This document shows, piece by piece, positions 28,002-62,053 of a stretch of DNA of 64,000 bases. Numbering within the stretch: position 1 is the stretch's first letter; the number at the start of each line of letters is the position of its first letter. The stretch covers positions 53,295-117,294 of the forward strand of contig DJVP01000011.1 in assembly GCA_002441245.1 (NCBI GenBank), in the 5' to 3' direction. The stretch is from Candidatus Omnitrophica bacterium UBA6253. Lineage in GTDB: Bacteria; Omnitrophota; Gorgyraeia; Gygaellales; Profunditerraquicolaceae. A program made the translations under genes and the position numbers. The notes beneath the pieces are model-generated. The model had not been told where the DNA came from. It worked only from the letters and a program-made list of their open reading frames with translations, and searched no databases.

Positions 28002-28002
28002 T

Positions 28003-38027: not shown

Positions 38028-39725
38028 ATGAAGAAGATCATCCCTAGCATAAAGATAATAACAATCATTTTAGTTGTTGCTTCATTTTTTGCGTTATTTT
38101 ATTCCTCTGTAGTTTTGAACAAGAATATTTCTTTTACTAATGATGAGCTCTGGGATTATATGCCAGCAGTTGCTATTGTCAATAATGAATTTATTGTCGA
38201 AAGTCAAGGGATCAATGTGCTTGGTTATAAAATTCCGCTTGTTACTGGTCCTTATCAAGGTGCACTAAAGACTTGGATAGCTGCACCCATAATTTATGTA
38301 TTTGGAACTTCTCCCCTTGCTTTACGAACTTTAAATATTGTTACAGCTCTTTTATTTTTATTTGCTTTTTATTGGGCACTACTAGGACTGTTGGAAAAAA
38401 AATATGCAATTTTAGTTTTCCTAATACCTTTTTTCGATGGCAATTTCTTATTGACCTCTCCATTAGATTACGGGTCTTTCTTATTTCAGAGTATTTTTAT
38501 TGTTCTTGGATTTGGATGTATTTTCCGTTTTTTTATTTTAAAAGACATTAGGTATCTTTGGTTGCTTTCATTATTTACTGGATGTCTATTAGCGCACAAA
38601 TTAACTTCTGTTCCGATTGTATTATTGTTTATTTTTATTTTTTTATTTGGTAGTCTTATTTTTCGTATGTTTCTGAAAGATAATGGTTGGATTTCCTCAA
38701 CTGTTAATATATTGCTTGTATCTTTTGTACTTTTTTTATTACCTTTAATTCCACATATAATTTATTTTTTGAAATCAAATGGACTTAGTTCATTTCTTGA
38801 AATGACAAAAAGCCATGAAAATATTGGGTTTTGCAGTAAAGTATTAAATAACTTGTTGTATTTAGGTAGTTCTGGCTCTAGCAATGGCCTTTATTGGTGT
38901 AGGAGTCTAATTGGGGATATGAATTTTTCTCCGAAGTTTGGATTATTCACATTTGCCTATGGTATCTACGGCATTTATTGCATTTCAATCTTACTACTAA
39001 TTTTATATAGCAATATTAAAATTGATTTAAGAAGATTTGTTATAGGTGGTTTTATATTATTTATGTTGTCAATTTTTTCTTTTTCTTTGTTCAAAGGTCT
39101 CAATAGGCCTTGGCATTACCAATTATTATATCCCTTTTTATGGTGTCAGGCGATTGTTTCCTTTGCTTATATGGTTGATTTCTTGTCAAGGAAGAATTTA
39201 ATTTGCAAGGTAATCCTTTATATAATTTATTTTATTCTTGGGATAGGATTGATTGTATCTTCTTTTTTTTCATATTGTTTGTTGGAAAGAATTGAGCAAA
39301 GTAAGGGAATGTCAATAACATCTCCTGTATTTAATGATTTTAGTAAATTATTGAAAAGACATAAATTTCAAAAGATATATAGCATAAATTACTCTTTAGG
39401 TTGGCCATTATATGTTGTGCTTGAAAGAAAATTACATATAGTAGATTTTGCTTTCTCTCAAATTGATAGTAATATATTATCTAGTATAATGACAGATCTG
39501 TTGGGCAACCAGAATGTTTGCTTAGTTTACCGCTATTCTAATTATAGCGGGGAAGATGCTAATTGGACTAAATGGTTGAATAAGGAATCTAGTATATATA
39601 AAATCAAAGATTTTATAAGCAAACATCAAGATAAATTGAAAGTCATCCGTATTAATAATGAATTTAATAAAGATCGAGAAGATATAGAGTTTGTTTTGGT
39701 ATATGCAAACAAAGGTAAATCTTAG
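38028..39725 (+). CDS. Polytopic integral membrane protein (~13 TM) of the glycan locus; function unknown, possible GT-C-like or polymerase-like
   Basis: 565 aa, highly hydrophobic and Phe/Leu/Ile-rich, with a soluble C-terminal ~150 aa. Confidence 0.45.
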   Translation: MKKIIPSIKIITIILVVASFFALFYSSVVLNKNISFTNDELWDYMPAVAIVNNEFIVESQGINVLGYKIPLVTGPYQGALKTWIAAPIIYVFGTSPLALRTLNIVTALLFLFAFYWALLGLLEKKYAILVFLIPFFDGNFLLTSPLDYGSFLFQSIFIVLGFGCIFRFFILKDIRYLWLLSLFTGCLLAHKLTSVPIVLLFIFIFLFGSLIFRMFLKDNGWISSTVNILLVSFVLFLLPLIPHIIYFLKSNGLSSFLEMTKSHENIGFCSKVLNNLLYLGSSGSSNGLYWCRSLIGDMNFSPKFGLFTFAYGIYGIYCISILLLILYSNIKIDLRRFVIGGFILFMLSIFSFSLFKGLNRPWHYQLLYPFLWCQAIVSFAYMVDFLSRKNLICKVILYIIYFILGIGLIVSSFFSYCLLERIEQSKGMSITSPVFNDFSKLLKRHKFQKIYSINYSLGWPLYVVLERKLHIVDFAFSQIDSNILSSIMTDLLGNQNVCLVYRYSNYSGEDANWTKWLNKESSIYKIKDFISKHQDKLKVIRINNEFNKDREDIEFVLVYANKGKS

Positions 39726-39812: not shown

Positions 39813-41195
39813 TTGAGTGTGAAGGTTTTATTGGTGATTCCTATTAACAGAAGTTATGTAATAACACCTAGCCTAGGACTGGGATACATTGCTTCGGTTT
39901 TAAGATTACAAGGCCATAAGGTAAAGATTTTACATTGTATTAAGGAAAAGTTTACTTTTGGTGACTTTGATAATTATATCAAACAAAATAATTTTGATTT
40001 TATTGGAATACAAATGTTTACTTTTGACAGCACTTCGGTTAAGCGGCATTTGGATATAATTAAAAAGAATAAACCATCTACTACTACAATATTGGGGGGG
40101 TACCATCCTTCCGGTGATCCGCATGAAATTTTGAAAAAGTTCCCACAAGCGGATTTTGCTTTTATAAGTGAAACAGAGATAGCTTTTCCATTTTTCTTAG
40201 AAGAAATAAATAAAAAGGATCCTAATTTAAGTATTGTGCCAAATCTTATATGGAGGAACGGTGATAAAATAATTATTAATTCTCTAAAGATAATTGATGA
40301 TTTAGACGAAATTCCTTTTCCGGCATGGGATTTGATGGATCCAAGAACTTACCCCGAAGCTCCTCATGGCGGATTTTTTAAAAGTTTCCCTACCGCTCCG
40401 ATAATTATTACTCGGGGTTGTCCTATGGAATGTACGTTTTGTGCGGGTAAATCTATTACTACTAAAGAAATAAGAAAAAGATCAATTAATAACGTGATAG
40501 AAGAAATGAAATTCTTGAAGGTAAAATATGGTGTTAATGATTTTTTAATTGAAGATGAAAATTTTACGCTTCATAAAAACCTAGTTTATGATTTCTGCAA
40601 TCAGTTAATAAATCAACAACTAAAAGTTACTTGGAGCTGTCCTTCTGGGGTGAGATTAGATACGTTAGATTTGGCCATTTTGCAATTGATGGAAGAATCT
40701 GGCTGTCACTCTCTTGCCGTTGGTGTGGAATTCGGTTCGCAACGAATACATGATTTAACAAAGAAAAATTTAACTATCAAAATAATAAAAGAAAGGATAT
40801 CTTTGTTTCAGCATACTAAAATTAAAGTAACTGGTTTTTTTATGTTTGGTATCCCAGGAGAGACAGAGCAGGAGATGATACAAACGATTAAATTTGCCAA
40901 AGCTTTGAACATTAACCGGGCGCAATTTAATAATTTTATGCCTTTACCGGGTTCGTCATTATATGCTCAACTTAAACACGATGGTATGGATAGTATTGAT
41001 TCCGACCATTTCTTCGTTCACGATGTTGGTTATGTGCCGCAAGGTTTGACTAGAAAACGACTTAAGAATATTCAGCGTAGGGCTTATTTAGAATTTTATT
41101 TAAGACCTAAAATAATCGTTGGTTTGATTAAAGAAATTACTTCATTTAGACAACTATGTAGATTGATCAAAAGATTTATGGATGGTCTTACGTAA
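39813..41195 (+). CDS. B12-binding-domain radical SAM protein (paralog 2)
   Basis: CX3CX2C motif (GCPMECTFC) after an N-terminal B12-like domain. TTG start. Confidence 0.8.
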   Translation: MSVKVLLVIPINRSYVITPSLGLGYIASVLRLQGHKVKILHCIKEKFTFGDFDNYIKQNNFDFIGIQMFTFDSTSVKRHLDIIKKNKPSTTTILGGYHPSGDPHEILKKFPQADFAFISETEIAFPFFLEEINKKDPNLSIVPNLIWRNGDKIIINSLKIIDDLDEIPFPAWDLMDPRTYPEAPHGGFFKSFPTAPIIITRGCPMECTFCAGKSITTKEIRKRSINNVIEEMKFLKVKYGVNDFLIEDENFTLHKNLVYDFCNQLINQQLKVTWSCPSGVRLDTLDLAILQLMEESGCHSLAVGVEFGSQRIHDLTKKNLTIKIIKERISLFQHTKIKVTGFFMFGIPGETEQEMIQTIKFAKALNINRAQFNNFMPLPGSSLYAQLKHDGMDSIDSDHFFVHDVGYVPQGLTRKRLKNIQRRAYLEFYLRPKIIVGLIKEITSFRQLCRLIKRFMDGLT

Positions 41196-42026: not shown

Positions 42027-44534
42027 ATGAGAAAAAATATCGAAATATTTCTTGGATTTTTCCTTGTTTTAGGAGTTACGCTTACTTCTTGGGGGCTTTC
42101 GCATATGTCATGGCCGTCTGTTTTGCCTTGGACTAATATAAATGCGCTTACTTGTTACTTGATTTTTCTTGGTGTCTGTACTGGATTGGTCATCTTTGGT
42201 TATTTTTGGAGTAGAAGAAGTGCGTTGCTCACAGGTTTTGCTCTTGTTGCTGGAATTGTTTTATTAACGGGTAATTTGTGGCCTTTTTTTGTTGTTTTAT
42301 GGTTTGTTGTTGCTTCTGTTCTATTTGGGAGATATATATTGATAGTGTTTCGTATAATGTTAGATGAAGATAGCTGGTTGATAAGTTTCTTAGTCGGGGG
42401 TGGCATTTATGGGATTGCTGTTGGTCTTTTAGCCCATTTTCCTGTGAATTATCCTGGATTATACGGAATTGCTCTTGTATTGCCAATAATATTAAGTTGG
42501 CGTACTGTTTTAGGGGTAGGCAAAAGATTTTTAAGTCGAATTGCTCAAAATTGTATTCCTCAGGTTGCATTCAAAATTAATATTTTAGATGTGACTATTG
42601 TAGTTGTCTCATTAGTTTACTTTGTAGTAGCATTGATGCCAGAATTGGGTTATGACGCGCTTGCAACCCATTTGTTTGTTCCGGCGCAACTTGCAACAAG
42701 ACATCAATGGGGTTTTGATGCTACAAAATATGTTTGGGCAGTTTTTCCTATGTTGGGCGACTGGATTTTTTCTATTGGCTATATGTTAGCTGGTGAGACT
42801 GGGGCACGATTAATTAATGTGGTATTTATTTTTACACTTGCTTGCTTAGTCCGGAAACTTGTACTTTGGGCAGGTGGTTCAATTGTTGGTGTAAGGTGGG
42901 CAATACTCATTTTTTTATCTACGCCACTAACTTTTACCGAAGGCAGTTCTCTTTATATTGATTCAATTTGGGCGTCATTTGTTGTTGCTGGCGTATGGGG
43001 AATCCTTAGTTTTTGTTCTGATTATAGTAAACCAAAATCTGAATTGCCATTGGCAGGATTATTCCTGGGGCTTGCACTGTCCACGAAGGCTGTAACATTT
43101 CTCATATTGCCCGTCTTGCTCTTAATAATGATATTGCGTTATAGATCTTGGTATAAATCGGTAAGTTTACAATCTTTGGCTATTGGTTTTAGTTTATTTT
43201 TCGTTTTATCTGCAATTCCTTATATAACAGCTTGGTTTTTGACTAATAATCCGGTTTTCCCATTTTTTAATGCTTTCTTTAAGTCTCCTTATTATCCTTC
43301 TGTATCGAACTTTGATACAACCGCTACAGTATATGGACAGGGAATAACTTGGGATATTCTGTACAGGTGGACATTTGAAACAGGAAAATATTTGGAGGCT
43401 AGTGCTGGTGCATCTGGTTTTCAGTGGCTATTATTCTTTCTACCTGTAGGATTAATTTTGATTGTTATAAAACAATATAAGGGTATTGCTATGTTTTTAG
43501 TTGCAATATCGATTGTTGTCTTAGTATTTAATTACGTAAGCTACTTGAGATATGTTTTTCCTGCTTGGGTAATATTCTCAGCAGCTATAGGTGTAGCTTT
43601 AAGTATTAAGTTTTCAAAATATATTATCATTAGAGGTACATATTATATATTGGTGGTTGCTACTATTTTATTGAACCTTCTATTTTTAGGAGCTGGAGCA
43701 TTTTATAGAGATTTTCCTTTAGAAGCTATCCTTAACGAAAATAATAGAATGCATTATTTAGTAGATAATATGCCTATCAGATATGCAGTTAAAGTAGTTA
43801 ATGATCTTAATATTGACAGGTCACCTGTTGCTGTTTTTGCTGAGGCTAGGACTGCAGGTTTAGCGTCTGACGCACTCTATCCAGCCTGGTATAATTGGAG
43901 TTTTCAAAAAGAAATTATATCTATTCAGACTGAAAAGGATGCAGCTGAAGTTTTATTTAAAAGGGGTGTTAATTTTGTTATTCTAGATTCTAATTGGCTG
44001 GGAACTAATTGTTGCCCGGATGAAGGTATGAGGCAAAAGTTAATAGAAAATATTACTGAGCCAATTACTCAATACCATTCTATTGGGGTTAGAAAAATCA
44101 AGTCTATGGGGATTGGGACAATTAAAACCTCCAACTTTTTCAAAACAGAGCTACTCGTTAATTCCAATTTTGTATCTGCAAGCGCCTGGAATTTTCCTGT
44201 TGTAACAAATTATGATTCTAAAAATGGCGTTATCTCAGCTAGTGTTGATTCTCCTGTAACTCAATATGTTAGTGTCATTCCTGGAAGATGCTATCTTTAT
44301 TCCATTGTAGCCCGCTCTGCTAAAGAAGGAGTCCAGGGGCGTATGCAAATTAATTGGTTAAACAAAAGCGGAAAGTTTATTACTACTAATATTCAAGTTT
44401 ATAATTGTTCGCCAACTTGGACTGAGCATACAATGGAAATAATTGCTCCACCAGACGCCTCAGGTGCAGTAGTTTATGTTGGTGGACATTCGTTGATTCC
44501 AGTGGAGTTTAAAAGTTGTTCTTTACGAGAATAA
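42027..44534 (+). CDS. Large GT-C-like membrane protein (~14 TM, ArnT/PMT-like) with a C-terminal ~270-aa soluble beta-rich domain
   Basis: 835 aa. It follows the DPM1-like synthase directly, which is the architecture of lipid-linked-sugar-dependent periplasmic glycosyltransferases. Confidence 0.55.
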   Translation: MRKNIEIFLGFFLVLGVTLTSWGLSHMSWPSVLPWTNINALTCYLIFLGVCTGLVIFGYFWSRRSALLTGFALVAGIVLLTGNLWPFFVVLWFVVASVLFGRYILIVFRIMLDEDSWLISFLVGGGIYGIAVGLLAHFPVNYPGLYGIALVLPIILSWRTVLGVGKRFLSRIAQNCIPQVAFKINILDVTIVVVSLVYFVVALMPELGYDALATHLFVPAQLATRHQWGFDATKYVWAVFPMLGDWIFSIGYMLAGETGARLINVVFIFTLACLVRKLVLWAGGSIVGVRWAILIFLSTPLTFTEGSSLYIDSIWASFVVAGVWGILSFCSDYSKPKSELPLAGLFLGLALSTKAVTFLILPVLLLIMILRYRSWYKSVSLQSLAIGFSLFFVLSAIPYITAWFLTNNPVFPFFNAFFKSPYYPSVSNFDTTATVYGQGITWDILYRWTFETGKYLEASAGASGFQWLLFFLPVGLILIVIKQYKGIAMFLVAISIVVLVFNYVSYLRYVFPAWVIFSAAIGVALSIKFSKYIIIRGTYYILVVATILLNLLFLGAGAFYRDFPLEAILNENNRMHYLVDNMPIRYAVKVVNDLNIDRSPVAVFAEARTAGLASDALYPAWYNWSFQKEIISIQTEKDAAEVLFKRGVNFVILDSNWLGTNCCPDEGMRQKLIENITEPITQYHSIGVRKIKSMGIGTIKTSNFFKTELLVNSNFVSASAWNFPVVTNYDSKNGVISASVDSPVTQYVSVIPGRCYLYSIVARSAKEGVQGRMQINWLNKSGKFITTNIQVYNCSPTWTEHTMEIIAPPDASGAVVYVGGHSLIPVEFKSCSLRE

Positions 44535-44571: not shown

Positions 44572-45588
44572 ATGATTAGTACTACTGAAAATAATCGTAT
44601 TGCAGTTGTTATCCCGTGTTACCGTGTTACGAAGCATATCCTTGATGTTATTACAGGGATTGGGCCTGAGGTATGGCGTATCTATGTAGTTGACGATAAG
44701 TGTCCTGATGAATCTTGGAAATATGTAGAAACAAACTGTAATGATTTGCGTGTTGTAATATTACGGCATGAGGTTAATCAAGGAGTTGGTAGTGCAGTAA
44801 TGACTGGTTATAAGGTGGCAATTGCAGATGGAGCTGATGTTATTGTAAAGATTGATGGTGATGGGCAGATGGACCCAAGTTTAATTCATGCGTTTACTAC
44901 ACCTATTTTGGTAGGGGAAGCGGATTACTCAAAAGGAAACCGTTTTTTTAACCTTGAGAAAATTCGCGCTATGCCTAAGGGGAGGCTTTTTGGTAATGCG
45001 GTATTATCATTTATAACTAAAATTTCTTCTGGTTATTGGGATTTATTTGATCCTTCTAATGGGTATACCGCAATTCATGCTGATGTAGCTCGACATTTGC
45101 CATTTGAAAAAATCAGCTCACGTTATTTTTTTGAAACCGATATATTATTTAGACTCAATACGCTACGTGCGGTTGTGGTCGATATACCTATGGATGCTCA
45201 ATATGGTAGTGAAGTTAGTAACCTTAAGATCCCAAGAATTATTGGTGAGTTTTTTATTAAAAATGCTCGCAATCTTTTAAAGCGAATCTTTTACAACTAT
45301 TATTTGCGTGATATGTCAATTGCATCTATAGAGTTGCCTTTGGGTTTGTTACTGTTTGTTTCTGGTTGTGGTTTTGGTGTTTACCATTGGGTTAATTCAT
45401 TGCAAATAGGTAGTAATACATCGGCTGGTACGGTAATGCTAGCCGCACTGCCAATTTTAATGGGGTCACAACTCATATTAGCTTTTCTTGGATATGACAT
45501 CGCGAACGTGCCGCGTAGACCTTTGCATAAGTTGCGACAGTTTTTAAAAAATACTTCGACGCATACTGGGTTATCAAGCGAAACATGA
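44572..45588 (+). CDS. GT2 glycosyltransferase with two C-terminal TM helices (GtrB/ArnC-like polyprenyl-phosphate glycosyltransferase)
   Basis: VVIPCYRV...VDDKCPDES...KIDGDGQMDP, plus C-terminal TM helices (LPLGLLLFVSGCGFGVY; MLAALPILMGSQLILAFL). Confidence 0.75.
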   Translation: MISTTENNRIAVVIPCYRVTKHILDVITGIGPEVWRIYVVDDKCPDESWKYVETNCNDLRVVILRHEVNQGVGSAVMTGYKVAIADGADVIVKIDGDGQMDPSLIHAFTTPILVGEADYSKGNRFFNLEKIRAMPKGRLFGNAVLSFITKISSGYWDLFDPSNGYTAIHADVARHLPFEKISSRYFFETDILFRLNTLRAVVVDIPMDAQYGSEVSNLKIPRIIGEFFIKNARNLLKRIFYNYYLRDMSIASIELPLGLLLFVSGCGFGVYHWVNSLQIGSNTSAGTVMLAALPILMGSQLILAFLGYDIANVPRRPLHKLRQFLKNTSTHTGLSSET

Positions 45589-47045
45589 AATCTGCAAATT
45601 TAGGTAATATGGCTATGTTAAGCGAAAAAAAGATCTATTTACTATATCCACCTATATCCAAAATGGAGAGATATTCTTCTGAAATTGGAAGTGCCGGGGG
45701 TGAACAAATTCCACTTGGGATTTTTTATCTCGCGTCTTATCTTAGGAAATTTGATTTTCAGGTGAAGGTCACTGATGCCGAAGCATTGAAGCTTGCATCT
45801 GCTGAGATAGTTTCAGAAATCGCTGATTTTGCTCCTAAATATGTTGGGATTAGTTCAACAACTGTGGCTTTTCACAGGGCTATTGAAATAGCTGAGGATA
45901 TACGAAAAACTAATCCTGAAATCATTATTATTTTAGGTGGTCCCCATGTAACCTCTAATCCTGAGCATGCACTTTCATCGGGGCTATTTAATTATGGAGT
46001 GCTCCGCGAGGGCGAAATTACTTTAATCGAATTACTGCAAGCATTGAACGAAAACAAAAATCCAAATACAATCTCTGGTATAGCATATCTCGATAAAAAT
46101 AAAAAACTGATAGTTACCTCGCCTCGAGAATATATTAAAAATCTTGATATTCTTCCATTTCCTGCATTTGATTTATTGCATGACCTGAATTTATACAAAC
46201 CGCAACCTTCAAACTATAAGACTCTTCCCGTAATTAATATGATTACTAGTCGCGGATGTCCAGGATTATGTACTTTTTGCGACAATAATACTTTTGGTAG
46301 AAATTATAGGAAGCGTTTAGCTGAGAACATCGCTGAAGAGATAAAATACCTGATACAAGAATTTAGTATTCGTGAATTTTTCTTTGTTGATGATACATTC
46401 TTAATTGATAAGGCTCGTATTTATAGACTTTTTGAGATTCTTAAACGGGAAAATATTTCCTTTTATTGGACTTGCGCAAGCCGGATAAATGATGTAGATT
46501 ATGAATTACTGAAATTCATAAAATCCAAGGGGTGTTGGCATATTTCTTTTGGGATTGAATCTGGAGATGAAAATATATTAAAGGTTATTAAAAAGAATAT
46601 TTCTTTGGAAAGGGTTACTGAGGTAATAAAATGGTGTAAGCAGTTAGGAATTAAAACAAAAGGTTTTTTTATTCTCGGGCATCCAACCGAAACGCTTGAA
46701 ACACTTGAAAAAACTATTAAACTTGCATGTAAATTACAGCTTGATGATATTGTAGCTACTATAAATACACCTATACCAGGATCGGTGCAGTATGCAGAGG
46801 CACTTAATTACGGGGCTATTGATAAAACGGACTGGACGCAATATAATTATTGGCGTCCAGTTTTTGTGCCGAATGGGCTTACCAAGGAAATATTATTAGA
46901 AAAGCATGGGGAGATATACCGGAAATTTTACTTGCGTCCACGAATTCTACTGCGATATTTTTTTGGATTCTTTGGAAAAGGAGGATGGAGAAGATTCTTG
47001 AATATCTCTAAGGCGAGTTTTTTTATATTTAAAAAGAACAGTTAG
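45585..47045 (+). CDS. B12-binding-domain radical SAM protein (paralog 3)
   Basis: CX3CX2C motif (GCPGLCTFC) after an N-terminal B12-like domain. Confidence 0.8.
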   Translation: MKSANLGNMAMLSEKKIYLLYPPISKMERYSSEIGSAGGEQIPLGIFYLASYLRKFDFQVKVTDAEALKLASAEIVSEIADFAPKYVGISSTTVAFHRAIEIAEDIRKTNPEIIIILGGPHVTSNPEHALSSGLFNYGVLREGEITLIELLQALNENKNPNTISGIAYLDKNKKLIVTSPREYIKNLDILPFPAFDLLHDLNLYKPQPSNYKTLPVINMITSRGCPGLCTFCDNNTFGRNYRKRLAENIAEEIKYLIQEFSIREFFFVDDTFLIDKARIYRLFEILKRENISFYWTCASRINDVDYELLKFIKSKGCWHISFGIESGDENILKVIKKNISLERVTEVIKWCKQLGIKTKGFFILGHPTETLETLEKTIKLACKLQLDDIVATINTPIPGSVQYAEALNYGAIDKTDWTQYNYWRPVFVPNGLTKEILLEKHGEIYRKFYLRPRILLRYFFGFFGKGGWRRFLNISKASFFIFKKNS

Positions 47046-47089: not shown

Positions 47090-48073
47090 GTGAAAGTTAA
47101 AATTAGTGCAATTTCATATCATCTACCAGATAAGGTTGAGGGTGTTGATGTGCTTCAGCGTGACAACCCTGATTGGGATATGCCGCGAATCCTTGAGAAA
47201 ACGGGTGTACATAACCGATATATTTCTTCTCCTGATGAAACTGCAGTTGATTTGGCATTTAAAGCTGGAGAGAAGCTGTTTGAGAATGCCTCGATTCGTA
47301 ATGATGTTGATTTACTTATCCTAGTTACTCAGTCTCCCGATTATGTTTTACCATCTAGCGCTTGCATTTTACAGGATCGGTTTTGTTTATTGAAAAACTG
47401 CATGGCGTTTGATGTCAATCTGGGTTGTTCTGGATTTGTCTACTCGATCAGTATTGCGGGAGGGCTAATAGAATCTGGTGTTGTAAGCAAGTGCTTAATA
47501 TTATGTGCGGATACCTATTCAAAATACATCAAAAAAAACGATCGAACATGTCGTCCGGTATTTAGTGATGGAGCGGCCGCTATCTTATTAGAAAAAAGTA
47601 ACACGGATTGTATTGGTCCATTTGAGTTTGGAACCGATGGTTCAGGCTATGACCGGTTAATTGTAAAAGACAGTGGTGCTAGAGGGATAAGTCAGAAATC
47701 TAATTCTCATCTGAGTTTTATTGAGATGCGCGGTAGTGATGTATTTCTTTTTACAATGCGCGTTGTCCCTGTAAGCATTAACAATCTTCTCAAGAAAGCT
47801 GGTATTGGCATTAAGGATATTGACGTATTTGTTTTTCACCAAGCTAGTAAATTTGTTATTGATAATTTGATACAAAATATGTCTTTGGATAGGGGGAAAG
47901 TTTTTATTAATTATGATTCTATTGGGAATACTGTTTCTGCATCTATACCTATTGCTCTCAAGGATGCAGTATTGAAAAGGCGTTTGAAAGAGGGGGATAC
48001 TATTATGATTGTTGGTTTTGGTGTTGGTTTATCTTGGGGGGCCGCGCTTATGCGTTGGTCAACAATATCATGA
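47090..48073 (+). CDS. 3-oxoacyl-ACP synthase III (FabH-like KAS III)
   Basis: Active-site Cys in LGCSGFVY, and His/Asn in the FHQAS and GNT regions. GTG start. Confidence 0.8.
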   Translation: MKVKISAISYHLPDKVEGVDVLQRDNPDWDMPRILEKTGVHNRYISSPDETAVDLAFKAGEKLFENASIRNDVDLLILVTQSPDYVLPSSACILQDRFCLLKNCMAFDVNLGCSGFVYSISIAGGLIESGVVSKCLILCADTYSKYIKKNDRTCRPVFSDGAAAILLEKSNTDCIGPFEFGTDGSGYDRLIVKDSGARGISQKSNSHLSFIEMRGSDVFLFTMRVVPVSINNLLKKAGIGIKDIDVFVFHQASKFVIDNLIQNMSLDRGKVFINYDSIGNTVSASIPIALKDAVLKRRLKEGDTIMIVGFGVGLSWGAALMRWSTIS

Positions 48074-48753
48074 TTATATTAACTGGTGCTTCAGGTGGAA
48101 TAGGCCGTGCCATACTACCTTCTTTGGTAACTCTGGATAATGTTATTGCAGTATATCATAAAAATCTTCCTGATATCAGCGGGATAAATGGCGTAACGTT
48201 ATATCAAGTTGATTTAACATCGGAATCAAAAGTTAATGATTTTGCTGCAGCCATGAAGGATCAACTTCAAAGAATTACGCTTATTCACGCTGCTGCTCTT
48301 AGCAGGAATGCGCTTGCTGCAAAGTTTAGCACAGAAGATTGGGATCAAGTTATTAATGTGAATCTTCGTGGTAGTTTTTTGTTTACCCGAGCGATGCTCT
48401 TACCTATGATACAAGAGAAATGGGGACGAATAATTTATATTTCGTCCGTTGCGGGAATGCGAGGTGCTCCGGGCACACTTGCATACTCGACTGCTAAGAC
48501 TGGACTCTTGGGAATGTCCCGAGTTATAGCTAACGAATATGCGCGGTTTGGGATTACTTCAAATGTGCTAGTTTTAGGTTATTTTAATACTGGCTTGATT
48601 GAAACCTTAAGCGAAAAACTGCGTAAAAAAATCTTAGAATTAATTCCATCGAGACAGTTAGGAAATCCCGCTAATGTCATTAATGCTGTAGAATTTCTAA
48701 TAAAATCAGAATATGTTAATGGTAGTGCAATGCATATTGATGGTGGCATATAA
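48070..48753 (+). CDS. Short-chain dehydrogenase/reductase (FabG-like 3-oxoacyl-ACP reductase)
   Basis: TGASGGIGRA Rossmann motif and catalytic YSTAKTGL (YxxxK). The ATG at 48070 overlaps the FabH stop by 4 nt (ATGA). The track ORF begins at 48034. Confidence 0.8.
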   Translation: MIILTGASGGIGRAILPSLVTLDNVIAVYHKNLPDISGINGVTLYQVDLTSESKVNDFAAAMKDQLQRITLIHAAALSRNALAAKFSTEDWDQVINVNLRGSFLFTRAMLLPMIQEKWGRIIYISSVAGMRGAPGTLAYSTAKTGLLGMSRVIANEYARFGITSNVLVLGYFNTGLIETLSEKLRKKILELIPSRQLGNPANVINAVEFLIKSEYVNGSAMHIDGGI

Positions 48754-48802
48754 TATCAGTTTTTATTGAAATTTAAGCTTCGGATTGCCAAAGATGTAGG
48801 CT

Positions 48803-49543
48803 ATGACAATAGAACAACATAAAGAAATCAAATTTTCACTTGCCCTTGATAAAAAAATAGATCTCGTGTCTGCGCCAGGAGTATTCACCCCAAACCTAAC
48901 TACAAATTTGTTGATTCAGGCGATTAAGAATACGGTTTCTGGGCCGACTAAATTGCTTGATTTAGGTTGTGGGACGGGGGTTGTTGGACTTGCGCTTTAC
49001 TTGCAGGGTTTAACAAAATCTCCACTTTATGCTTCGGATCTAAGTAAACCAGCAGTGTTTTGCAGTAGGGAGAATTTTAAACGTTATGGATGTCAAGCTG
49101 AAGTTCGCAATGGGGCACTGTTTGAGCCATGGTTAGGCGAAAAATTTGATGTTATTGTTGATGACATATCTGCTATTGCGCAGGATATTGCTGTTGTTTC
49201 GCCTTGGTTTCAAGGCGTACCTTGTGATACAGGCAAGGATGGAACTAATCTTGTTTCAGAAATTTTATGTAGTGCGCGTCAGTATCTTACAGATAAAGGA
49301 TTTTTATTTTTTCCAATATTATCACTGTCAAATGTTGACATACTTTTAAATGTAGCTAAAGAAAATTTTGGTACGCTTAATAGAGTTATTCGACAGGATT
49401 GGCCATTACCCGCAGAATTAAAATTGCATATGCCTCTACTGCGAAAACTAAACGCCGAGGGTTCTATCAAGTTAGAAGAGCGGTTTGGTATGGTTTTATG
49501 CTATACTGAAATATATTGTGTTACAAATTTTCAACCTGTTTAA
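48803..49543 (+). CDS. Class I SAM-dependent methyltransferase
   Basis: Motif I LDLGCGTGVVG and an acidic motif II (VIVDD). Confidence 0.6.
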   Translation: MTIEQHKEIKFSLALDKKIDLVSAPGVFTPNLTTNLLIQAIKNTVSGPTKLLDLGCGTGVVGLALYLQGLTKSPLYASDLSKPAVFCSRENFKRYGCQAEVRNGALFEPWLGEKFDVIVDDISAIAQDIAVVSPWFQGVPCDTGKDGTNLVSEILCSARQYLTDKGFLFFPILSLSNVDILLNVAKENFGTLNRVIRQDWPLPAELKLHMPLLRKLNAEGSIKLEERFGMVLCYTEIYCVTNFQPV

Positions 49544-49564
49544 CTAGATACGGAGGTTATATCC

Positions 49565-49810
49565 ATGTCGAATATTTCCCAATCTGATGTAATTATAGTC
49601 ATAGAAGAGGCACTCAAAATAAAACCCGGATCGCTTCAAGAAAATACGCGGGCCGAAGAGATTGATAATTGGGATTCACTCGGTCAATTGAGTATTCTTG
49701 TCGCTTTGGATAGACTCTTCGATGGGAAGATTGTAAGTATTGCTGATATGGCAGAGGCTGATTCTATACCTAAGATTTTTGATATTCTCAAGCAGCACTC
49801 ATTGCTTTGA
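49565..49810 (+). CDS. Acyl carrier protein-like (phosphopantetheine attachment site)
   Basis: 81 aa and acidic, with DNWDSLGQLSIL, a DSL 4'-PP serine context. Confidence 0.65.
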   Translation: MSNISQSDVIIVIEEALKIKPGSLQENTRAEEIDNWDSLGQLSILVALDRLFDGKIVSIADMAEADSIPKIFDILKQHSLL

Positions 49811-49874
49811 GTAGTATTAAGTTTTTCGTAATTCGTAACCTTCCATAAATTACAACCAAGTTTAAAAACTTATT

Positions 49875-50960
49875 TTGCTAAAAGGAAAAAGCATGATTCA
49901 GATATCAGTTAAAACATTTACAGAGGCAAATCTGGAAAGTTTTCTGAAAATGTCAGAATTGGAATATGGGTTAACGATTTCCACTAATTTCGATCATATT
50001 AGATGGAAGTATTTGGGTTCGCCATTTGGTGGATCTTATTATGTTATTTTGTTAGAAAATGATGAAGTAGTAGGGCGTGTGTTGGCTCAGCCGCGCACCT
50101 TGTGCGTTGCTTCAAAAGTACTCAAGGCTGCTCTCATTACAGATCTTCTTATTAATCAAGAGCATCGTTCACCGGTTAATTTCATTAATATAACAAAGGC
50201 GTGTAGCAATATAGCAAGTTTTGATTTGGTTTATCATACATCTAACGAACGCACGTTTTCGCTCTATAGTAAATTACTTCGTTTTCCTAACCCTTTTTCT
50301 TTACGGGGTTATGGTTTTCCAGTTCGATTGGCCGGTTTTTTTACTTCAATCATTGGCCTTAGAATTGATGTAATAGATTGGTTAACTGCTCCATTGCGCT
50401 GGTTGCTCGAAGTTATTGCTTGTGTAGTCAATTTTATTGCAAAGCTTAATATTGTTCAACGCGGAATTAGCGATGATGAACTCGGAACGATTTGTATAAA
50501 ATGTTTGCGTAAATCTGGTCCGCATTTTGTTCGGACTAATGCTTTTCTGAAATGGCGTTTTGGCGATGCACCATTATGGCCTGCCACGGTATATCGCATA
50601 GACAGAAAAGGGAAGTTTCTTGGCTATGTTGTTACACGTAAAATAAAATTAGGTTGTTTAAATTATTTAGTGTTAATGGATTTTATCCTAGATCCCGATA
50701 CGCCGCTTATTGTCCAAATTGCCTTGCGATTGTGGCTTATACGTAAGACGATTACATCGAAGGTAGATGCATTTTTTACTATGGTTAATCCGTCTAGTGC
50801 TATTGCCCGTAAATGTGTGGGATTTCCGTTTGCAAGCATCCCAAATAGATTACTTCCTCATGCTACACCTATATTTGTAAGAGCATGTAGTAGTGACAAT
50901 AAGGAATTCGAAACGACTAGATCAATCCATCTTACCTTGGCAGATCTTGACTATTTTTAA
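49875..50960 (+). CDS. Hypothetical protein; possible GNAT/FemAB-like acyltransferase
   Basis: 361 aa. Its position between the ACP and the deacetylase mirrors the FemAB-related/polysaccharide-deacetylase pairs of PEP-CTERM-type EPS loci. Sequence evidence is weak. Confidence 0.3.
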   Translation: MLKGKSMIQISVKTFTEANLESFLKMSELEYGLTISTNFDHIRWKYLGSPFGGSYYVILLENDEVVGRVLAQPRTLCVASKVLKAALITDLLINQEHRSPVNFINITKACSNIASFDLVYHTSNERTFSLYSKLLRFPNPFSLRGYGFPVRLAGFFTSIIGLRIDVIDWLTAPLRWLLEVIACVVNFIAKLNIVQRGISDDELGTICIKCLRKSGPHFVRTNAFLKWRFGDAPLWPATVYRIDRKGKFLGYVVTRKIKLGCLNYLVLMDFILDPDTPLIVQIALRLWLIRKTITSKVDAFFTMVNPSSAIARKCVGFPFASIPNRLLPHATPIFVRACSSDNKEFETTRSIHLTLADLDYF

Positions 50961-50994
50961 GTAGAGGAGTAGATGTTAAATCAAGGATTTCACA

Positions 50995-51852
50995 TTGATT
51001 AATAATAAAAGTACTTATAACTTTCTTACTTTTGATATTGAGGAATGGTTTCACGCCAATTTCCTGGGAGTAAATCTTGAAGATTACAGTGAATTATCTA
51101 CTGATCTTGAAAAAAATGTCGATAGGCTTATAGCTGTATGTGCTGAAATTAATGTTTATTCCACTTGTTTTATACTAGGATCCGTTGCAGAAAACAAGCC
51201 ACAAATAGTAAAAAAACTTTATATGGCCGGGCATGAAATTGCTTCGCATGGATATAATCATAAGTTAGTTTATACGATGACAGGGGATGAATTTAGAAAA
51301 GATCTGCAAAAATCATGTACGATTATTGAAAACATTACCGGTGAAAAAGTATTAGGTTATCGTGCTCCGTCATGGTCTGTAAAAAAAGAAAATTTACCCT
51401 GGTTTTATACTATTTTAGAAGAAGCCGGCTTGAAATATTCTTCTTCTGTTTATCCGGCGCATACATTTCTTTATGGTATTCCATGTTTTACAAGAAAAGT
51501 GCATTATCCGGTAATTAACGGAAAGAAAATTAATGTTTTAGAGATGCCTGTTCCTGTTGTGAGTTTACTCGGTAAATATCTTGGATTTTCTGGTGGATTT
51601 TACCTGCGTTTCCTTCCAGTATGGTTCATCAATCGAACTATCAGAAATTTTAACTATAAAAGCGAGCCAGTTTTTATTTATCTTCATCCAAGGGAGATTG
51701 ATGTAAAACAACCAAAATTAAAACTACCAGTATTTGAAGATTTTATCCATTATTGGGGTATTAATTCATGTGAGAAAAAATTACGGAAGATTTTAATATC
51801 TCTGAGCGGGAAGATTGTTAGGATAAGGGATTCTTTAAATAAAACTTTATAA
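50995..51852 (+). CDS. Polysaccharide deacetylase family protein (EPS-locus subfamily)
   Basis: N-terminal LTFDIEEWFHANF, and HGYNH. Confidence 0.7.
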   Translation: MINNKSTYNFLTFDIEEWFHANFLGVNLEDYSELSTDLEKNVDRLIAVCAEINVYSTCFILGSVAENKPQIVKKLYMAGHEIASHGYNHKLVYTMTGDEFRKDLQKSCTIIENITGEKVLGYRAPSWSVKKENLPWFYTILEEAGLKYSSSVYPAHTFLYGIPCFTRKVHYPVINGKKINVLEMPVPVVSLLGKYLGFSGGFYLRFLPVWFINRTIRNFNYKSEPVFIYLHPREIDVKQPKLKLPVFEDFIHYWGINSCEKKLRKILISLSGKIVRIRDSLNKTL

Positions 51853-57583: not shown

Positions 57584-58360
57584 ATGAAAGTAGTCATTTT
57601 AGCGGGTGGTAGAGGTACAAGGCTTAGCGAGGAAACCACTAGTATTCCTAAGCCGATGGTAGAAATTGGCAGTAAGCCAATTATTTGGCACATTATGAAG
57701 ATGTACTCTCATTTTGGTTTTAATGATTTTATTATCTGCCTGGGTTATAAAAGCTATATGATCAAAGAATATTTCTCTCATTATTTTATGCATATGAGCG
57801 ATGTAACTATTGATTTAAAGAAAAATGATGTTAAGGTTCATGCAACATCATCTGAGCCATGGAAGATTACTCTTGTTGACACCGGGCTTGAGACAATGAC
57901 CGGTGGTCGCCTGAAGCGCGTTCAAAAATATATAGGCCATGAAACTTTTATGATGACTTATGGCGATGGAGTCTGCGATGTAAATATTAGGGAGTTAGTG
58001 AAGTTCCATAAGGGCTGCGGAAAATCCGCGACAGTTACCGCTGTTCAGCTTGCCGGAAGGTTTGGCGCTTTAAGCATGAAAGATACAGGAATAGTCAGTT
58101 CTTTTTTGGAAAAACCTAAAGGTGACGGTTCCTGGATCAACGGAGGGTTTTTTGTGCTTGAGCCTGAAGTTTTTAATTATATCAGCGGAGATGAGACTAT
58201 CTTGGAATTTGATTCTTTAAAGAATATGGCTGTTGCTAAGCAATTATCCGCATTTAAACATAATGGTTTTTGGAAGTGTATGGATACATTAAGGGACAAA
58301 TCTGAGTTAGAAGCGCTATGGAATGATGGTAAGGCGCCATGGAGAAAATGGAAGGATTAA
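57584..58360 (+). CDS. rfbF: Glucose-1-phosphate cytidylyltransferase
   Basis: MKVVILAGGRGTRLSEETTSIPKPMVEIGSKPIIWHIMKMY closely matches RfbF/DdhA. Confidence 0.9.
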   Translation: MKVVILAGGRGTRLSEETTSIPKPMVEIGSKPIIWHIMKMYSHFGFNDFIICLGYKSYMIKEYFSHYFMHMSDVTIDLKKNDVKVHATSSEPWKITLVDTGLETMTGGRLKRVQKYIGHETFMMTYGDGVCDVNIRELVKFHKGCGKSATVTAVQLAGRFGALSMKDTGIVSSFLEKPKGDGSWINGGFFVLEPEVFNYISGDETILEFDSLKNMAVAKQLSAFKHNGFWKCMDTLRDKSELEALWNDGKAPWRKWKD

Positions 58361-58363
58361 AGA

Positions 58364-59350
58364 GTGATGGAAAGTAAGTTTTGGAAAAACAAGAAGGTCT
58401 TAATTACAGGTTTTGAAGGATTCTTGGGGTCTAACCTTACTAAAGCGCTTTTCTCTTCAGGCGCAAGAATATTTGGTTTAGATATCAAGGTCAGAAGAAA
58501 AGAAACTATTTTAACTGAACCTGACTATAAGAAAATTAGTGTTATTAAGGGCAGCGTAGCTAACTATAAATTAGTTCAGGGGATTATAAATAAAAATAAG
58601 ATTAATGTGGTATTCCATCTGGCAGCAGAAGCAATTGTATGCAGATGCAATGATAAGCCATTAAATGCTTTTTCTTCGAATATCGAAGGCACATGGAATA
58701 TTCTGGAGGCATGCAGGAATTTAAGAAATATTCAATCAATTATTATTGCTTCTAGCGATAAGGCATACGGCAGTCATAAGAAACTTCCTTATTATGAAGA
58801 TGCGCCATTGCAAGGTAATCATCCTTATGACGTGTCTAAAAGTTGCGCTGACCTGATAGCTTATACTTACGCGCATACTTATAGTTTACCGGTAGCGGTT
58901 ACCAGGTGCGGTAATATATACGGGCCGGGTGATTTTAATTTCAGCCGGCTTATTCCTGATGCGATGCGTTGTTTGTCTGAAGGCAAAACTTTACAGGTGC
59001 GCAGCGATGGTAGATTTATCCGCGATTATGTTTATATTGATGATATTGTAGGCGGTTACTTACGAATAGCCGAGTTATTAAAAAAGAAGGGGCTTTCCGG
59101 TGAATCGTTTAATTTAAGCAATGAGTGTCCGTTGACAGTCATTGAATTGTTGCAGAAAATAACCAAACTTAATTTATGCGGCAGTAAGTTAAGTTATAAG
59201 GTTCTGGATGTGGTAAAATACGAGATTAAGAAACAATACCTTTCTTCAGCTAAGGCCAGGCGTGTCTTAGACTGGAAGCCCGCTTATAGCTTAGGTGATG
59301 GTTTAAAAAAGACTGCCGAATGGTATTTTAGCCATTTTTCTAAAATATGA
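58364..59350 (+). CDS. rfbG: CDP-glucose 4,6-dehydratase
   Basis: VLITGFEGFLGSNL...YDVSKSCADLIAYTY. Confidence 0.8.
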   Translation: MMESKFWKNKKVLITGFEGFLGSNLTKALFSSGARIFGLDIKVRRKETILTEPDYKKISVIKGSVANYKLVQGIINKNKINVVFHLAAEAIVCRCNDKPLNAFSSNIEGTWNILEACRNLRNIQSIIIASSDKAYGSHKKLPYYEDAPLQGNHPYDVSKSCADLIAYTYAHTYSLPVAVTRCGNIYGPGDFNFSRLIPDAMRCLSEGKTLQVRSDGRFIRDYVYIDDIVGGYLRIAELLKKKGLSGESFNLSNECPLTVIELLQKITKLNLCGSKLSYKVLDVVKYEIKKQYLSSAKARRVLDWKPAYSLGDGLKKTAEWYFSHFSKI

Positions 59351-60087
59351 AGATATATTTTTTAGGGACGATGGGTTGGTTTGATACAAAGCTTGGCAAT
59401 ACGCTTTGTGTTTTGGTGGACACAGGCAAGGAATATATCATATTTGATGCCGGGACAGGTTTCTCTAAGATTGATAATTATATAAAAGACAGGCGTCCTA
59501 TCTATCTTTTTCTAAGCCATTTTCACCTGGATCATATTATTGGCCTGCATACTTTGAATAAATTTTCTTTTCCCCAGGGCATCAATGTTTTCGGGCCAAA
59601 AGGCGTCAAAAAAATGTTCAGCCTTATGATTAATGCGCCGTATTCCAAGCCTGTCAATAAACTTAAATTAGGGATTAAAGTTTCAGAAATTAGCCATAAA
59701 TCAAAATTTCCTTTTAATATCAAGTATAAGGAACTTTTACATACAACAGTTTGCTATGGATACCGGTTGGCCGCAGGGGGCAGCTCTATAGCCTTTTGCA
59801 CTGACACTGGCCCATGTAAATCAATAAACTCCTTGGGCGCAAACACAGATGTTTTAATAACCGAATCATCTTTACCTCCCGGCATTGTTGATAGAGGATG
59901 GCCGCATTTAAATCCTGAACAGGCAGCTAGAGCAGCCAAAACTTCAAAGGCAAAGAAATTAGTTTTAGTCCATTTTGACGCTGGCGATTATCCAAAGGAG
60001 ATCGATATAGGGTCAGCTGAGAAATCCGCCCGGAAGATCTTTAAAAACACAATAGCCGCAAGGGACGGGGATTGTTTGGATGTTTAA
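59347..60087 (+). CDS. MBL-fold metallo-hydrolase
   Basis: HxHxDH motif LSHFHLDHIIGL. Confidence 0.7.
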   Translation: MKIYFLGTMGWFDTKLGNTLCVLVDTGKEYIIFDAGTGFSKIDNYIKDRRPIYLFLSHFHLDHIIGLHTLNKFSFPQGINVFGPKGVKKMFSLMINAPYSKPVNKLKLGIKVSEISHKSKFPFNIKYKELLHTTVCYGYRLAAGGSSIAFCTDTGPCKSINSLGANTDVLITESSLPPGIVDRGWPHLNPEQAARAAKTSKAKKLVLVHFDAGDYPKEIDIGSAEKSARKIFKNTIAARDGDCLDV

Positions 60088-61130: not shown

Positions 61131-61175
61131 ATGATGTTTGATGGACGACTGAAAGTAATCTAAAGAGGAGAGAAA

Positions 61176-62048
61176 ATGGCAGAAATAAAGATTGGAGATG
61201 TTTTAATAGGTGATAATCATCCTTGTTATATTGTTGCCGAAATCGGGATTAACCATAATGGGGATGTGGGGATAGCTAAAAGGTTGATTGATGTTGCGGT
61301 GGTGGCAGGCTGCAATGCGGTTAAATTCCAAAAACGCGATCCGGATTCATGTGTGCCATTGTCACAGCAGAATAAAATGAGAGAGACTCCTTGGGGTTAT
61401 ATTACTTATTTAGAATACCGTCGTAAAGTTGAATTTGGGGAAAAGGAATACAAGGAGATAGATGACTATTGCCGGAAAAAGAATGTCCAGTGGTTTGTTT
61501 CTTCCTGGGACCAAGTATCCTTAGAAGCTTTAGCGGATTTTGATTTGCCTTGCTATAAGATATCGTCCGCCTGCCTTACGGATATTAATTTATTAAAGGC
61601 ATTCCGTTCAAAGAAAAAGCCGCTTATTTTATCTACGGGGATGAGTACGATAGAGCAAATAGATAAGGCTGTGGAAGTCCTGGGCAAAAAAGATTTAATT
61701 ATTTTGCATTCTACAAGCACCTATCCGGCTTATTATGAAGAATTAAATTTACGTGCCATTAAGACTTTGAGAGAACGTTATGGTGTTTTGGTGGGGTATT
61801 CCGGTCATGAAACAGGCATTGCTTCTTCGGTTGCTGCGGTTGCCTTAGGGGCTTGCATGATCGAACGCCATATAACTTTAGATAGGTCAATGTGGGGTTC
61901 TGACCAGGCGGCATCATTAGAACCAAGCGGCACAATAAGGCTTGTCCGCGATATAAGGCTGGTAGAGACATCGATGGGTGATGGTATCAAGCGCGTATTT
62001 GACCGGGAATTGCCAATTATGGAAAGATTACGCAGGGTTGAAAACTAA
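61176..62048 (+). CDS. NeuB-family (N-acetylneuraminate/pseudaminate synthase-like) aldolase, short form lacking the antifreeze-like C-domain
   Basis: PCYIVAEIGINHNGDVGIAKRLIDVAVVAGCNAVKFQKR is the NeuB/PseI/LegI signature. 290 aa. Confidence 0.8.
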   Translation: MAEIKIGDVLIGDNHPCYIVAEIGINHNGDVGIAKRLIDVAVVAGCNAVKFQKRDPDSCVPLSQQNKMRETPWGYITYLEYRRKVEFGEKEYKEIDDYCRKKNVQWFVSSWDQVSLEALADFDLPCYKISSACLTDINLLKAFRSKKKPLILSTGMSTIEQIDKAVEVLGKKDLIILHSTSTYPAYYEELNLRAIKTLRERYGVLVGYSGHETGIASSVAAVALGACMIERHITLDRSMWGSDQAASLEPSGTIRLVRDIRLVETSMGDGIKRVFDRELPIMERLRRVEN

Positions 62049-62053
62049 AATCT

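Follow-up and report, generated by a model that had tools for sequence, protein, structure and literature searches.

In the window (the whole 64,000-nucleotide stretch of DNA that was analysed), a cassette of six genes was confirmed within a surface sugar-polymer locus, all closely spaced on the + strand. In order, these encode a FabH-type KAS III condensing enzyme (47090..48073; PF08541 1e-31, PF08545 1.5e-21), a FabG-like 3-ketoacyl reductase of the SDR family (48070..48753; adh_short 2e-37, TIGR01830 2.8e-51), an MTS-type SAM methyltransferase (48803..49543; MTS 8.7e-15), a dedicated acyl carrier protein (ACP) of 81 aa (49565..49810), a protein of 355 aa, hereafter protein X (49893..50960), and a NodB-type CE4 de-N-acetylase with a C-terminal DUF3473 domain (50995..51852; PF01522 5e-18, PF11959 6.7e-30). 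The family matches of the individual ORFs (KAS III, SDR, MTS and deacetylase) were far beyond chance. Neither a malonyl/acyl loading enzyme nor a phosphopantetheinyl transferase was found among the cassette genes, so that housekeeping enzymes have to be assumed for these steps. By Pfam scan, the window locus also holds many other GT2/GT4 genes, a Bac_transf initiating transferase and a Wzy_C protein.

The functional unit reaches upstream to 42027, adding two further + strand genes, for a polytopic GT-C-type glycosyltransferase (ArnT/PMT-like, 835 aa; 42027..44534; PF02366 PMT 1.4e-7) and a GT2 of the ArnC/GtrB/DPMS/PpgS-like polyprenyl-phosphate sugar synthase type (338 aa; 44572..45588; PF00535 1.2e-15); this pair adjoining the cassette was missed in the earlier note. 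The NCBIfam matches of the GT2 (AglJ 2.6e-14, PpgS 8.2e-12 and ArnC 2.8e-4) were all sub-cutoff, its sole PDB match was a Pyrococcus Dol-P-Man synthase (2e-11), and two C-terminal membrane helices were apparent as hydrophobic segments. Membership of the B12-binding radical SAM enzyme encoded between the GT2 and the KAS III (45585..47045, + strand; PF04055 1.7e-31, PF02310 1.4e-21) is doubtful; two paralogues occur elsewhere in the window locus, and no counterpart was present in the loci of X homologues (X loci) of other organisms. A hopanoid trio resembling HpnI/HpnK/HpnJ (GT2, deacetylase and radical SAM enzyme) was considered and rejected, given that HpnJ, the best NCBIfam match, reached 239 bits against a cutoff of 577, that all other X loci are without the radical SAM enzyme, and that the genes around it are plainly those of a glycan locus.

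The KAS III scored above the cutoff of NF006829 (269.5 versus 249 bits) and has an intact catalytic triad, C113, H250 and N280 aligning with Cys-His-Asn of E. coli FabH, with Leu in place of FabH Phe87. Its top PDB match was the Burkholderia pseudomallei KAS III 3gwa (6.6e-76; E. coli FabH, 1.6e-43), and its score fell below the cutoff of the housekeeping FabH model TIGR00747 (256.9 versus 292.1), which makes it a paralogue rather than the housekeeping FabH. The start of the SDR is most likely the ATG at 48070, a correction; this ATG shares the sequence ATGA with the KAS III stop, and the resulting length of 227 aa agrees with independent gene calls. The reductase carries TGASGGIG, S125 and Y139-x3-K143; its matches to TIGR01830 (174.5 bits, cutoff 297.75) and to the NodG subfamily (6.2e-40) were both sub-cutoff. 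The fold neighbours of the methyltransferase are amino/amide N-methyltransferases, and a BioC-like role (O-methylation of malonyl-ACP), for which the sole support was a weak match limited to the SAM-binding region (E 2.8e-5), seems less likely.

Against Pfam, the 81-aa ORF gave nothing at threshold and no PF00550 match, PP-binding_2 alone appearing below it (E 0.07, 13.8 bits, cutoff 32). A profile built from 14 family members matched ACPs exclusively in the PDB (E. coli AcpP, E about 7e-4), and on alignment the product is a divergent ACP: all 14 members have D37-S38, with conservation of at least 90% at L39, and these residues are aligned to D35-S36-L37 of AcpP. The phosphopantetheinylation serine of the DSL motif proposed earlier was thereby borne out by alignment as S38, opposite AcpP Ser36. 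The ATG is preceded by GGAGG.

The deacetylase scored 65.7 bits on PF01522 (cutoff 23.1) with its CE4 motifs intact (FDIEE, HGYNH, RAPSW and LH), and its N-terminus is non-hydrophobic, a signal peptide being absent. On TIGR03006 it reached 237.6 bits, under the equivalog cutoff of 276.2, which would place it outside this family of the XrtA/PEP-CTERM system. No exosortase was matched by Pfam among roughly 50 window ORFs, a scan that left aside four long ORFs at 23868-29087.

Protein X and its family

Protein X most likely starts at the ATG at 49893 rather than at 49875, as had been given before; this start is preceded by AAGGA, and its position is common to all 115 homologues. Searches of PDB chains gave no match for the single sequence and only AAC(2') at E about 0.5 for the profile. 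As sequence searches were uninformative, the fold was taken from structure prediction, in which a tandem-GNAT N-acyltransferase fold was predicted with high confidence. The guess of the earlier note that this protein is the N-acyltransferase thus agrees with the predicted fold, while its comparison with FemAB-related proteins found no counterpart in sequence, neither FemAB (Pfam) nor TIGR03019 membership being obtained. There was likewise no significant Pfam NMT or Acetyltransf match for X, no NMT or NMT_C membership for the family (a weak NMT match, E 0.018, in one of 44 members) and no Pfam family for ten remote relatives. Compared with NMT and Eis-type tandem GNATs, X has 8-14% identity at a TM-score of about 0.54 and lacks the SCP2 domain of Eis; its donor is probably acyl-ACP rather than acyl-CoA, and its acceptor would be a sugar, where the others act on a protein N-terminus or an aminoglycoside.

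In the first GNAT half, R92 of CoA-binding motif A is kept and the glycines are replaced (consensus R-x-x-P-x-N-F), a pattern uninformative on an ACP versus a CoA donor. Residues 141-186 form an amphipathic, fairly hydrophobic helical insert. The chain ends in DY(F/L) in 43 of 44 members and in DF in the remaining one, at the same alignment position throughout. Such an invariant end fits a functional C-terminus, and its carboxylate may, by analogy, act as catalytic base: in NMT the general base is the enzyme's own C-terminal carboxylate (PMC4964394). The X family, comprising about 140 clusters (50% identity, E<1e-30) and several thousand remoter relatives, is widespread and without name, annotation or description.

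Conservation of the gene set across hosts

A de-N-acetylase was encoded next to or near X in 17 of the 17 related loci with enough flanking DNA. It was of the PIG-L type in most X loci and of the NodB-type CE4/DUF3473 type in the window; that two unrelated folds occupy one slot argues that the deacetylase activity is required, not a particular protein. Small ACP and KAS III genes were present in most related loci, the ACP gene directly adjoining X in nearly all of them, and one remote X family member was followed by a phosphopantetheinyl transferase. The association of X with deacetylase, ACP and KAS III, which the earlier note had drawn from the one locus, recurs in Gamma-, Beta- and Zetaproteobacteria and in one Spirochaetota MAG. 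The sequence types of X and ACP switch jointly between two variants (A and B). Around a constant core of ACP, X and deacetylase, the builder genes are exchanged: the methyltransferase, an AMP-ligase with an MBL protein, HMG-CoA synthase with MaoC, or LuxC/LuxE with FabA. X loci are consistently surrounded by genes for glycosyltransferases, Wzy_C/WaaL-like proteins and sugar-nucleotide enzymes, and by Wzm/Wzt or Bac_transf genes. The nearest named relative, at 68% identity, was a Methylobacter MAG.

Most X loci, including that of the window, combine an ArnC/DPMS-like GT2 with a GT-C transferase, so that the GT2 synthase plus GT-C pairing of Arn-type pathways is found in the window and kept beside X in other hosts. 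Across distant hosts, the window GT2 shares 72-73% identity with its counterparts in the Variovorax and Mariprofundus X loci, compared with 32% between the window and Variovorax X proteins, and the window GT-C is 42% identical over 747 aa to an 839-aa protein beside the Variovorax X. GT-C homologues or PMT_2 proteins were present in loci L005, L009, L011-L014, L016, L018 and L019; in L018 the genes form a single uninterrupted string (GT2-EamA-KAS III-SDR-MTase-ACP-X-PIG-L-GT-C). This adjacency of GT2 and GT-C suggests that the modified sugar is carried on polyprenyl phosphate and not placed directly in the repeat unit. Many related loci encode a GtrA or EamA flippase-like protein; tblastn of the window with such proteins from related loci gave no flippase (E<1e-3), and in some loci (P0093 and L006) no GT-C or GT2 was seen within 10 kb. 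The lipid-linked route is for these reasons less certain than the acylation.

Proposed pathway and alternative readings

We consider it reasonably probable that the module trades the N-acetyl group of a surface-glycan amino sugar for a longer acyl group, the sugar being carried via a GT2/GT-C lipid route. The KAS III would join a short acyl primer to malonyl carried by the dedicated ACP, and the SDR would reduce the product to a 3-hydroxyacyl-ACP, at which the chain would end because neither a dehydratase nor an enoyl reductase is present in the cassette. A short 3-hydroxyacyl-ACP had been proposed in the earlier note and is favoured by the intact KAS III triad and ACP serine; 3-hydroxybutanoyl, named there, is one possible chain, the length being unreadable from sequence. 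On the best reading, the substrate would be a HexNAc linked to lipid phosphate (or to a nucleotide), deacetylated and then re-acylated from the 3-hydroxyacyl-ACP. The GT2 would load the sugar onto undecaprenyl phosphate, and on the cytoplasmic face the CE4/DUF3473 enzyme would take the N-acetyl group off the HexNAc unit and X would transfer the acyl group from ACP to the freed amine, its C-terminal carboxylate perhaps serving as base as in NMT. The modified sugar would then be flipped and attached to the glycan in the periplasm by the GT-C, its proposed transferase, in the manner of the Arn, Francisella GalN and Bordetella GlcN pathways. An optional methyl group, perhaps N-linked, could come from the methyltransferase.

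The same chemistry could instead take place on a nucleotide sugar. De-N-acetylation and re-acylation would then occur on UDP-HexNAc in solution, an ordinary glycosyltransferase would add the product to the repeat unit, and GT2 and GT-C would serve some other decoration. The absence of an obvious GT-C near the P0093 and L006 cassettes, the lack of a recognisable flippase in the window and its many other GT2/GT4, Bac_transf and Wzy_C genes would suit this route, for which N-acylations on nucleotide sugars provide precedents (F. psychrophilum wfpG, FdhC/QdhC). We nevertheless regard it as rather unlikely, since the GT2 is far more conserved across hosts than X (72% versus 32%) and in most loci directly adjoins the cassette, accompanied by GtrA/EamA and GT-C; in L018 all of these form one unbroken string.

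The product could also be a free glycolipid or small molecule, such as an N-acyl-glucosamine lipid or N-acyl amino compound, with the polysaccharide-locus setting incidental; some GNAT-fold enzymes do produce small N-acyl compounds from acyl-ACP (LuxI-type synthases and N-acyl amino acid synthases), and the hydrophobic character of the insert at 141-186 would be in keeping with such a product. The consistent glycan surroundings of X loci, and a HexNAc-type de-N-acetylase as the constant partner of X, make this improbable. About equally improbable, in our estimate, is that X is a FemAB-like enzyme, dependent on aminoacyl-tRNA or acetyl-CoA, with an amino acid or acetyl as the transferred group, and that KAS III, SDR and ACP serve an unrelated lipid or O-acyl substituent. 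FemABX proteins are tandem GNATs too, and in PEP-CTERM EPS loci FemAB-related genes adjoin TIGR03006 deacetylases (NCBIfam families), a model on which the window deacetylase scores 237.6 bits.

Comparison with known systems

The re-acylation that we favour has a one-to-one functional parallel in the Nod-factor set, which comprises NodB deacetylase, NodA N-acyltransferase, NodF ACP, NodE ketosynthase, NodG reductase and NodS N-methyltransferase; the cassette likewise holds a de-N-acetylase, a dedicated ACP, a condensing enzyme, a FabG-like reductase, a SAM methyltransferase and, by prediction, an ACP-dependent N-acyltransferase. The cassette genes did not come out as orthologues of NodA, NodB or NodS. 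Deacylation on a lipid carrier is known from the Arn (ArnC, ArnD, ArnE/F, ArnT), Francisella FlmF2/NaxD/FlmK and Bordetella LgmABC pathways, which resemble the module in a GT2 with C-terminal helices, a cytoplasmic amino-sugar deacylase and a GT-C, and in related loci also in a small EamA/GtrA flippase, whereas the search of the window for a flippase gene gave no match. These pathways end at the free amine; the cassette inserts an ACP, a KAS III, a reductase and a candidate N-acyltransferase, which implies re-acylation. Replacement of the GlcNAc N-acetyl by a longer acyl group is carried out by LpxC/LpxD, with (R)-3-hydroxyacyl-ACP as the LpxD donor, and by teicoplanin Orf2*/Orf11*. Orf2* belongs to the PIG-L family, the deacetylase type of most X loci, but LpxC, LpxD (a left-handed beta-helix) and the teicoplanin acyltransferase have folds unrelated to those of the cassette, and no dedicated ACP or KAS III is known there.

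Among the common determinants of serotype are unusual N-acyl substituents of amino sugars, for example 3-hydroxybutanoyl, dihydroxyhexanoyl and branched oxoprolyl derivatives; most of the enzymes responsible for their synthesis and attachment are, to our knowledge, either not known or assigned by guesswork. Literature searches turned up no described system of the cassette's composition and, as precedents, only F. psychrophilum and FdhC/QdhC. The remark in the earlier note that such gene sets are rarely spelled out was fair, with the reservation that an ACP/KAS/ketoreductase cassette with a different transferase had already been predicted in Flavobacterium psychrophilum, where the wfpC-wfpG O-antigen cassette has its own ACP, KAS genes and 3-ketoacyl-ACP reductase for a predicted amide-linked 3,5-dihydroxyhexanoyl on Qui2NAc4N (PMC6519341). 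That pathway, likewise only predicted, shares with the window an own ACP, KAS and ketoreductase for a hydroxyacyl group on an amino sugar; it differs in a PglD-type transferase (PMC6519341) in place of a tandem GNAT, in an amine derived from an aminotransferase acting on a 4-keto sugar rather than from de-N-acetylation, and in that no GT2/GT-C link is described.

More tentatively, and as a possibility only, X may be the founder of a family of tandem-GNAT, acyl-ACP-dependent N-acyltransferases acting on polyprenyl-phosphate GlcN/GalN with a C-terminal carboxylate base. Together with an interchangeable de-N-acetylase, it could establish a new branch of the decoration pathways based on GT2, flippase and GT-C, one with deacetylation and re-acylation on the lipid carrier, in which swappable builders (KAS III with reductase, AMP-ligase with MBL, HMG-CoA synthase, or LuxC/E) would supply the diverse exotic N-acyl groups known from bacterial surface glycans. 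The cassette is a complete, testable gene set centred on an unannotated family. If the proposal is true, a large 'hypothetical protein' family becomes annotatable, the lipid-carrier decoration pathways by which bacteria alter their LPS and cell walls gain a re-acylation step, and ACP, transferase, deacetylase and exchangeable acyl builders form a modular glycoengineering toolkit. In the window, the same tentative proposal would allow the sugar to be N-methylated as well as N-acylated, in the manner of Nod factors.

Enzymes of the cassette and the fold of protein X

The six ORFs at 47090-51852 (KAS III, SDR, methyltransferase, ACP, protein X and deacetylase), proposed in the earlier note as an acyl-decoration set, were found to be real and tightly packed. 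Most likely, KAS III and the SDR would together produce a 3-hydroxyacyl-ACP. As neither a dehydratase nor an enoyl reductase is present, only one round of extension would take place, and in the simplest case the acyl product would be 3-hydroxybutanoyl, depending on the primer. The deacetylase would free the amine of a HexNAc, onto which X would then move the acyl group.

The enzyme families named in the earlier note were borne out. KAS III (47090-48073, + strand) scored 269.5 bits against NF006829 (cutoff 249), and its C113, H250 and N280 aligned with the FabH triad, with Leu in place of Phe87. Since it scored below the cutoff of the housekeeping FabH model, it was taken to be a paralogue and not the housekeeping enzyme; its best PDB match was KAS III of Burkholderia pseudomallei (3gwa, 6.6e-76), with E. 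coli FabH well behind (1.6e-43). The SDR (+ strand) was FabG-like, as claimed (TIGR01830, 2.8e-51, below the cutoff; TGxxxGxG, Ser and YxxxK motifs present), and probably starts at ATG 48070, which overlaps the KAS III stop codon as ATGA. The methyltransferase was of the MTS type. The deacetylase (+ strand), expected to be NodB-type, consisted of CE4 and DUF3473 with intact motifs and scored just under the TIGR03006 cutoff; no signal peptide was found in it. The 81-aa ORF did not reach the Pfam threshold; a PDB search with its family profile returned ACPs only, and D37-S38, aligned with AcpP D35-S36, was invariant in 14 relatives (95-aa versions included), in agreement with the DSL serine attributed to it.

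Protein X (49893-50960) probably starts at ATG 49893, a position common to all X homologues and preceded by AAGGA, which gives a length of 355 aa. It matched no Pfam or NCBIfam family, and weak Acetyltransf_9 signals in 17 of 44 relatives were the only family signals obtained. Across the 44-member alignment, which reaches down to 27% identity, the C-terminal end was DY(F/L) in 43 members and DF in one, at an identical alignment position throughout. The general base of NMT is its C-terminal carboxylate, and the C-terminal F402 of Eis has been proposed as a remote base (PMC4964394); by analogy, we infer that X would use its C-terminal carboxylate as base, as NMT does. X is predicted to be a tandem GNAT similar to NMT and Eis, from a family as yet without a name, and not a protein of the FemAB-related kind to which its position had been likened. 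An exhaustive HMM search retrieved 140 (E<1e-30), 788 (E<1e-10) and 4551 (E<1e-3) clusters at 50% identity, mostly of ~350 aa and matched end to end; a Pfam scan of ten remote relatives detected no family in any of them.

A constant core with exchangeable acyl-building genes

Nineteen independent loci with X relatives were compared, from Methylobacter, Gallionellaceae, Mariprofundus, a betaproteobacterium (MOLA814), two Polynucleobacter, three Variovorax, a Spirochaetota MAG and metagenomes. A de-N-acetylase adjoined or was near X in all 17 loci with sufficient flanking DNA, usually PIG-L, and CE4/DUF3473 in the window and in loci L014 and L017. That two unrelated folds fill the same slot is a classic non-orthologous displacement, and argues that the activity itself is required. 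In most related loci a small ACP-like gene directly adjoined X, and KAS III was present in the locus.

Two main arrangements were distinguished: KAS III-SDR-MTase-ACP-X-deacetylase (variant A; window, L004, L007, L008, L014, L018 and the P0093 locus) and X-ACP(95 aa)-SDR-MBL-KAS III-AMP-ligase-PIG-L (variant B; L005, L006, L009-L013 and L019), between which the sequence types of X and ACP change in step. A metagenome locus (P0083) reads ACP-X-MTase-HMG-CoA synthase-MaoC-KAS III-PIG-L, where HMG-CoA synthase and the MaoC dehydratase are a beta-branching set, and the remote locus L017 (219-10970) contains AMP-ligase, LuxE, LuxC, FabA, SDR, GMC oxidoreductase, a split transketolase, X and CE4/DUF3473. 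The constant core is ACP, X and deacetylase, while the acyl-building genes are exchangeable; the very different acyl-building genes in P0083 and L017 suggest a modular system for varied N-acyl groups. In L015 (455-2148), a remote X member (profile match at E 2.7e-30) is directly followed, with a one-base overlap, by a 4'-phosphopantetheinyl transferase (PF01648), which independently ties the X family to carrier-protein chemistry.

Many related loci carry, 5' of the acyl cassette, an MT11 methyltransferase, GtrA, a 424-aa SDR 'epimerase' and a ~529-aa GMC/FAD oxidoreductase (L004 902-4960; L009 5912-9973; L010 5867-9940), reduced to the last two genes in L007 (4355-7226) and L011 (7050-9990). 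In their oxidise/reduce logic these two resemble DprE1/DprE2, which act on a polyprenyl-phosphate sugar. No such set occurs in the window. In the Spirochaetota MAG (L014), the deacetylase, KAS III and X are each in two ORFs (5915-6755, 7295-8261 and 9989-11069), reflecting either frameshift pseudogenes or assembly errors.

A possible lipid-carrier route and known parallels

The acyl-decoration logic of the earlier note was largely right, but besides likening X to FemAB-related proteins it omitted from the unit two + strand genes immediately upstream, encoding a GT-C protein (42027-44534, 835 aa) with a PMT match and a GT2 protein (44572-45588, 338 aa) with two C-terminal membrane helices. The GT2 is related to polyprenyl-phosphate sugar synthases (PDB: Dol-P-Man synthase, 2e-11; NCBIfam: AglJ, PpgS and ArnC). 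It shares 72-73% identity with the X-neighbouring GT2 of Variovorax and Mariprofundus, whereas X and its Variovorax relative are just 32% identical; for the GT-C and its counterpart in Variovorax the figure is 42%. GT2, GT-C and a small membrane protein (GtrA or EamA) recur around the cassette in related loci, and L018 has the uninterrupted order GT2-EamA-KAS III-SDR-MTase-ACP-X-PIG-L-GT-C. In the Arn, Francisella GalN and Bordetella GlcN pathways, a sugar is placed on undecaprenyl phosphate and loses its acyl group at the cytoplasmic face; after flipping, a GT-C enzyme transfers it. The architecture is the same here, and the cassette would add a re-acylation step. Inclusion of GT2 and GT-C in the unit suggests a lipid-carrier route, which is less certain than the acylation itself, since no recognisable flippase was found in the window and two related loci have no GT-C nearby.

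Functionally, the nearest parallel is the Nod-factor set (NodB, NodA, NodF, NodE, NodG, NodS), which corresponds function for function but differs in protein families; the deacetylate-then-acylate logic is also that of LpxC/LpxD and teicoplanin Orf2*/Orf11*. A predicted ACP/KAS/KR cassette lies in the O-antigen locus of Flavobacterium psychrophilum, but with a PglD-type transferase and an amine derived from an aminotransferase (PMC6519341). The known 3-hydroxybutanoyl transferases FdhC and QdhC have been reported without an ACP cassette (PMC4869667). The literature search found no description of the ACP/KAS III/SDR/X/deacetylase composition.

The surrounding surface-glycan locus

All 55 gene-like ORFs of at least 150 aa lie on the + strand, and the window is a single long co-directional stretch. 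Type IV pilus-like genes (prepilin-type N-terminal methylation motif, PilM_2, TPR protein, secretin), unrelated to the cassette, occupy 872-8734. An IS200/Y1-transposase-like gene (20042-20728) separates housekeeping genes (S1 protein, TyrRS) from the first sugar-nucleotide gene at 21141, and from ~21 kb a large surface-glycan locus runs on downstream, with rmlA-like and dehydratase genes, Wzm/Wzt ABC transporter genes, many GT2/GT4 genes, a Bac_transf initiating transferase, a Wzy_C/WaaL-like protein and NeuB. G+C falls from ~0.42-0.45 outside to 0.29-0.38 within the locus, consistent with horizontal acquisition. Mid-locus, a 565-aa ORF (38028-39725) is without a Pfam family. Three B12-binding radical SAM paralogues (32417-33841, 39813-41195 and 45585-47045; 27-30% mutual identity), for which X loci in other organisms contain no counterpart, may C-methylate the sugars or modify them by some other radical chemistry. 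At the 3' end, a further sugar pathway (57584-63850) comprises a nucleotidyltransferase, two SDR dehydratase/epimerases, an MBL-fold protein (dissimilar to the MBL of variant B, with no tblastn match), a TPP-dependent enzyme and the NeuB, which belongs to the sialic/nonulosonic acid synthase family.
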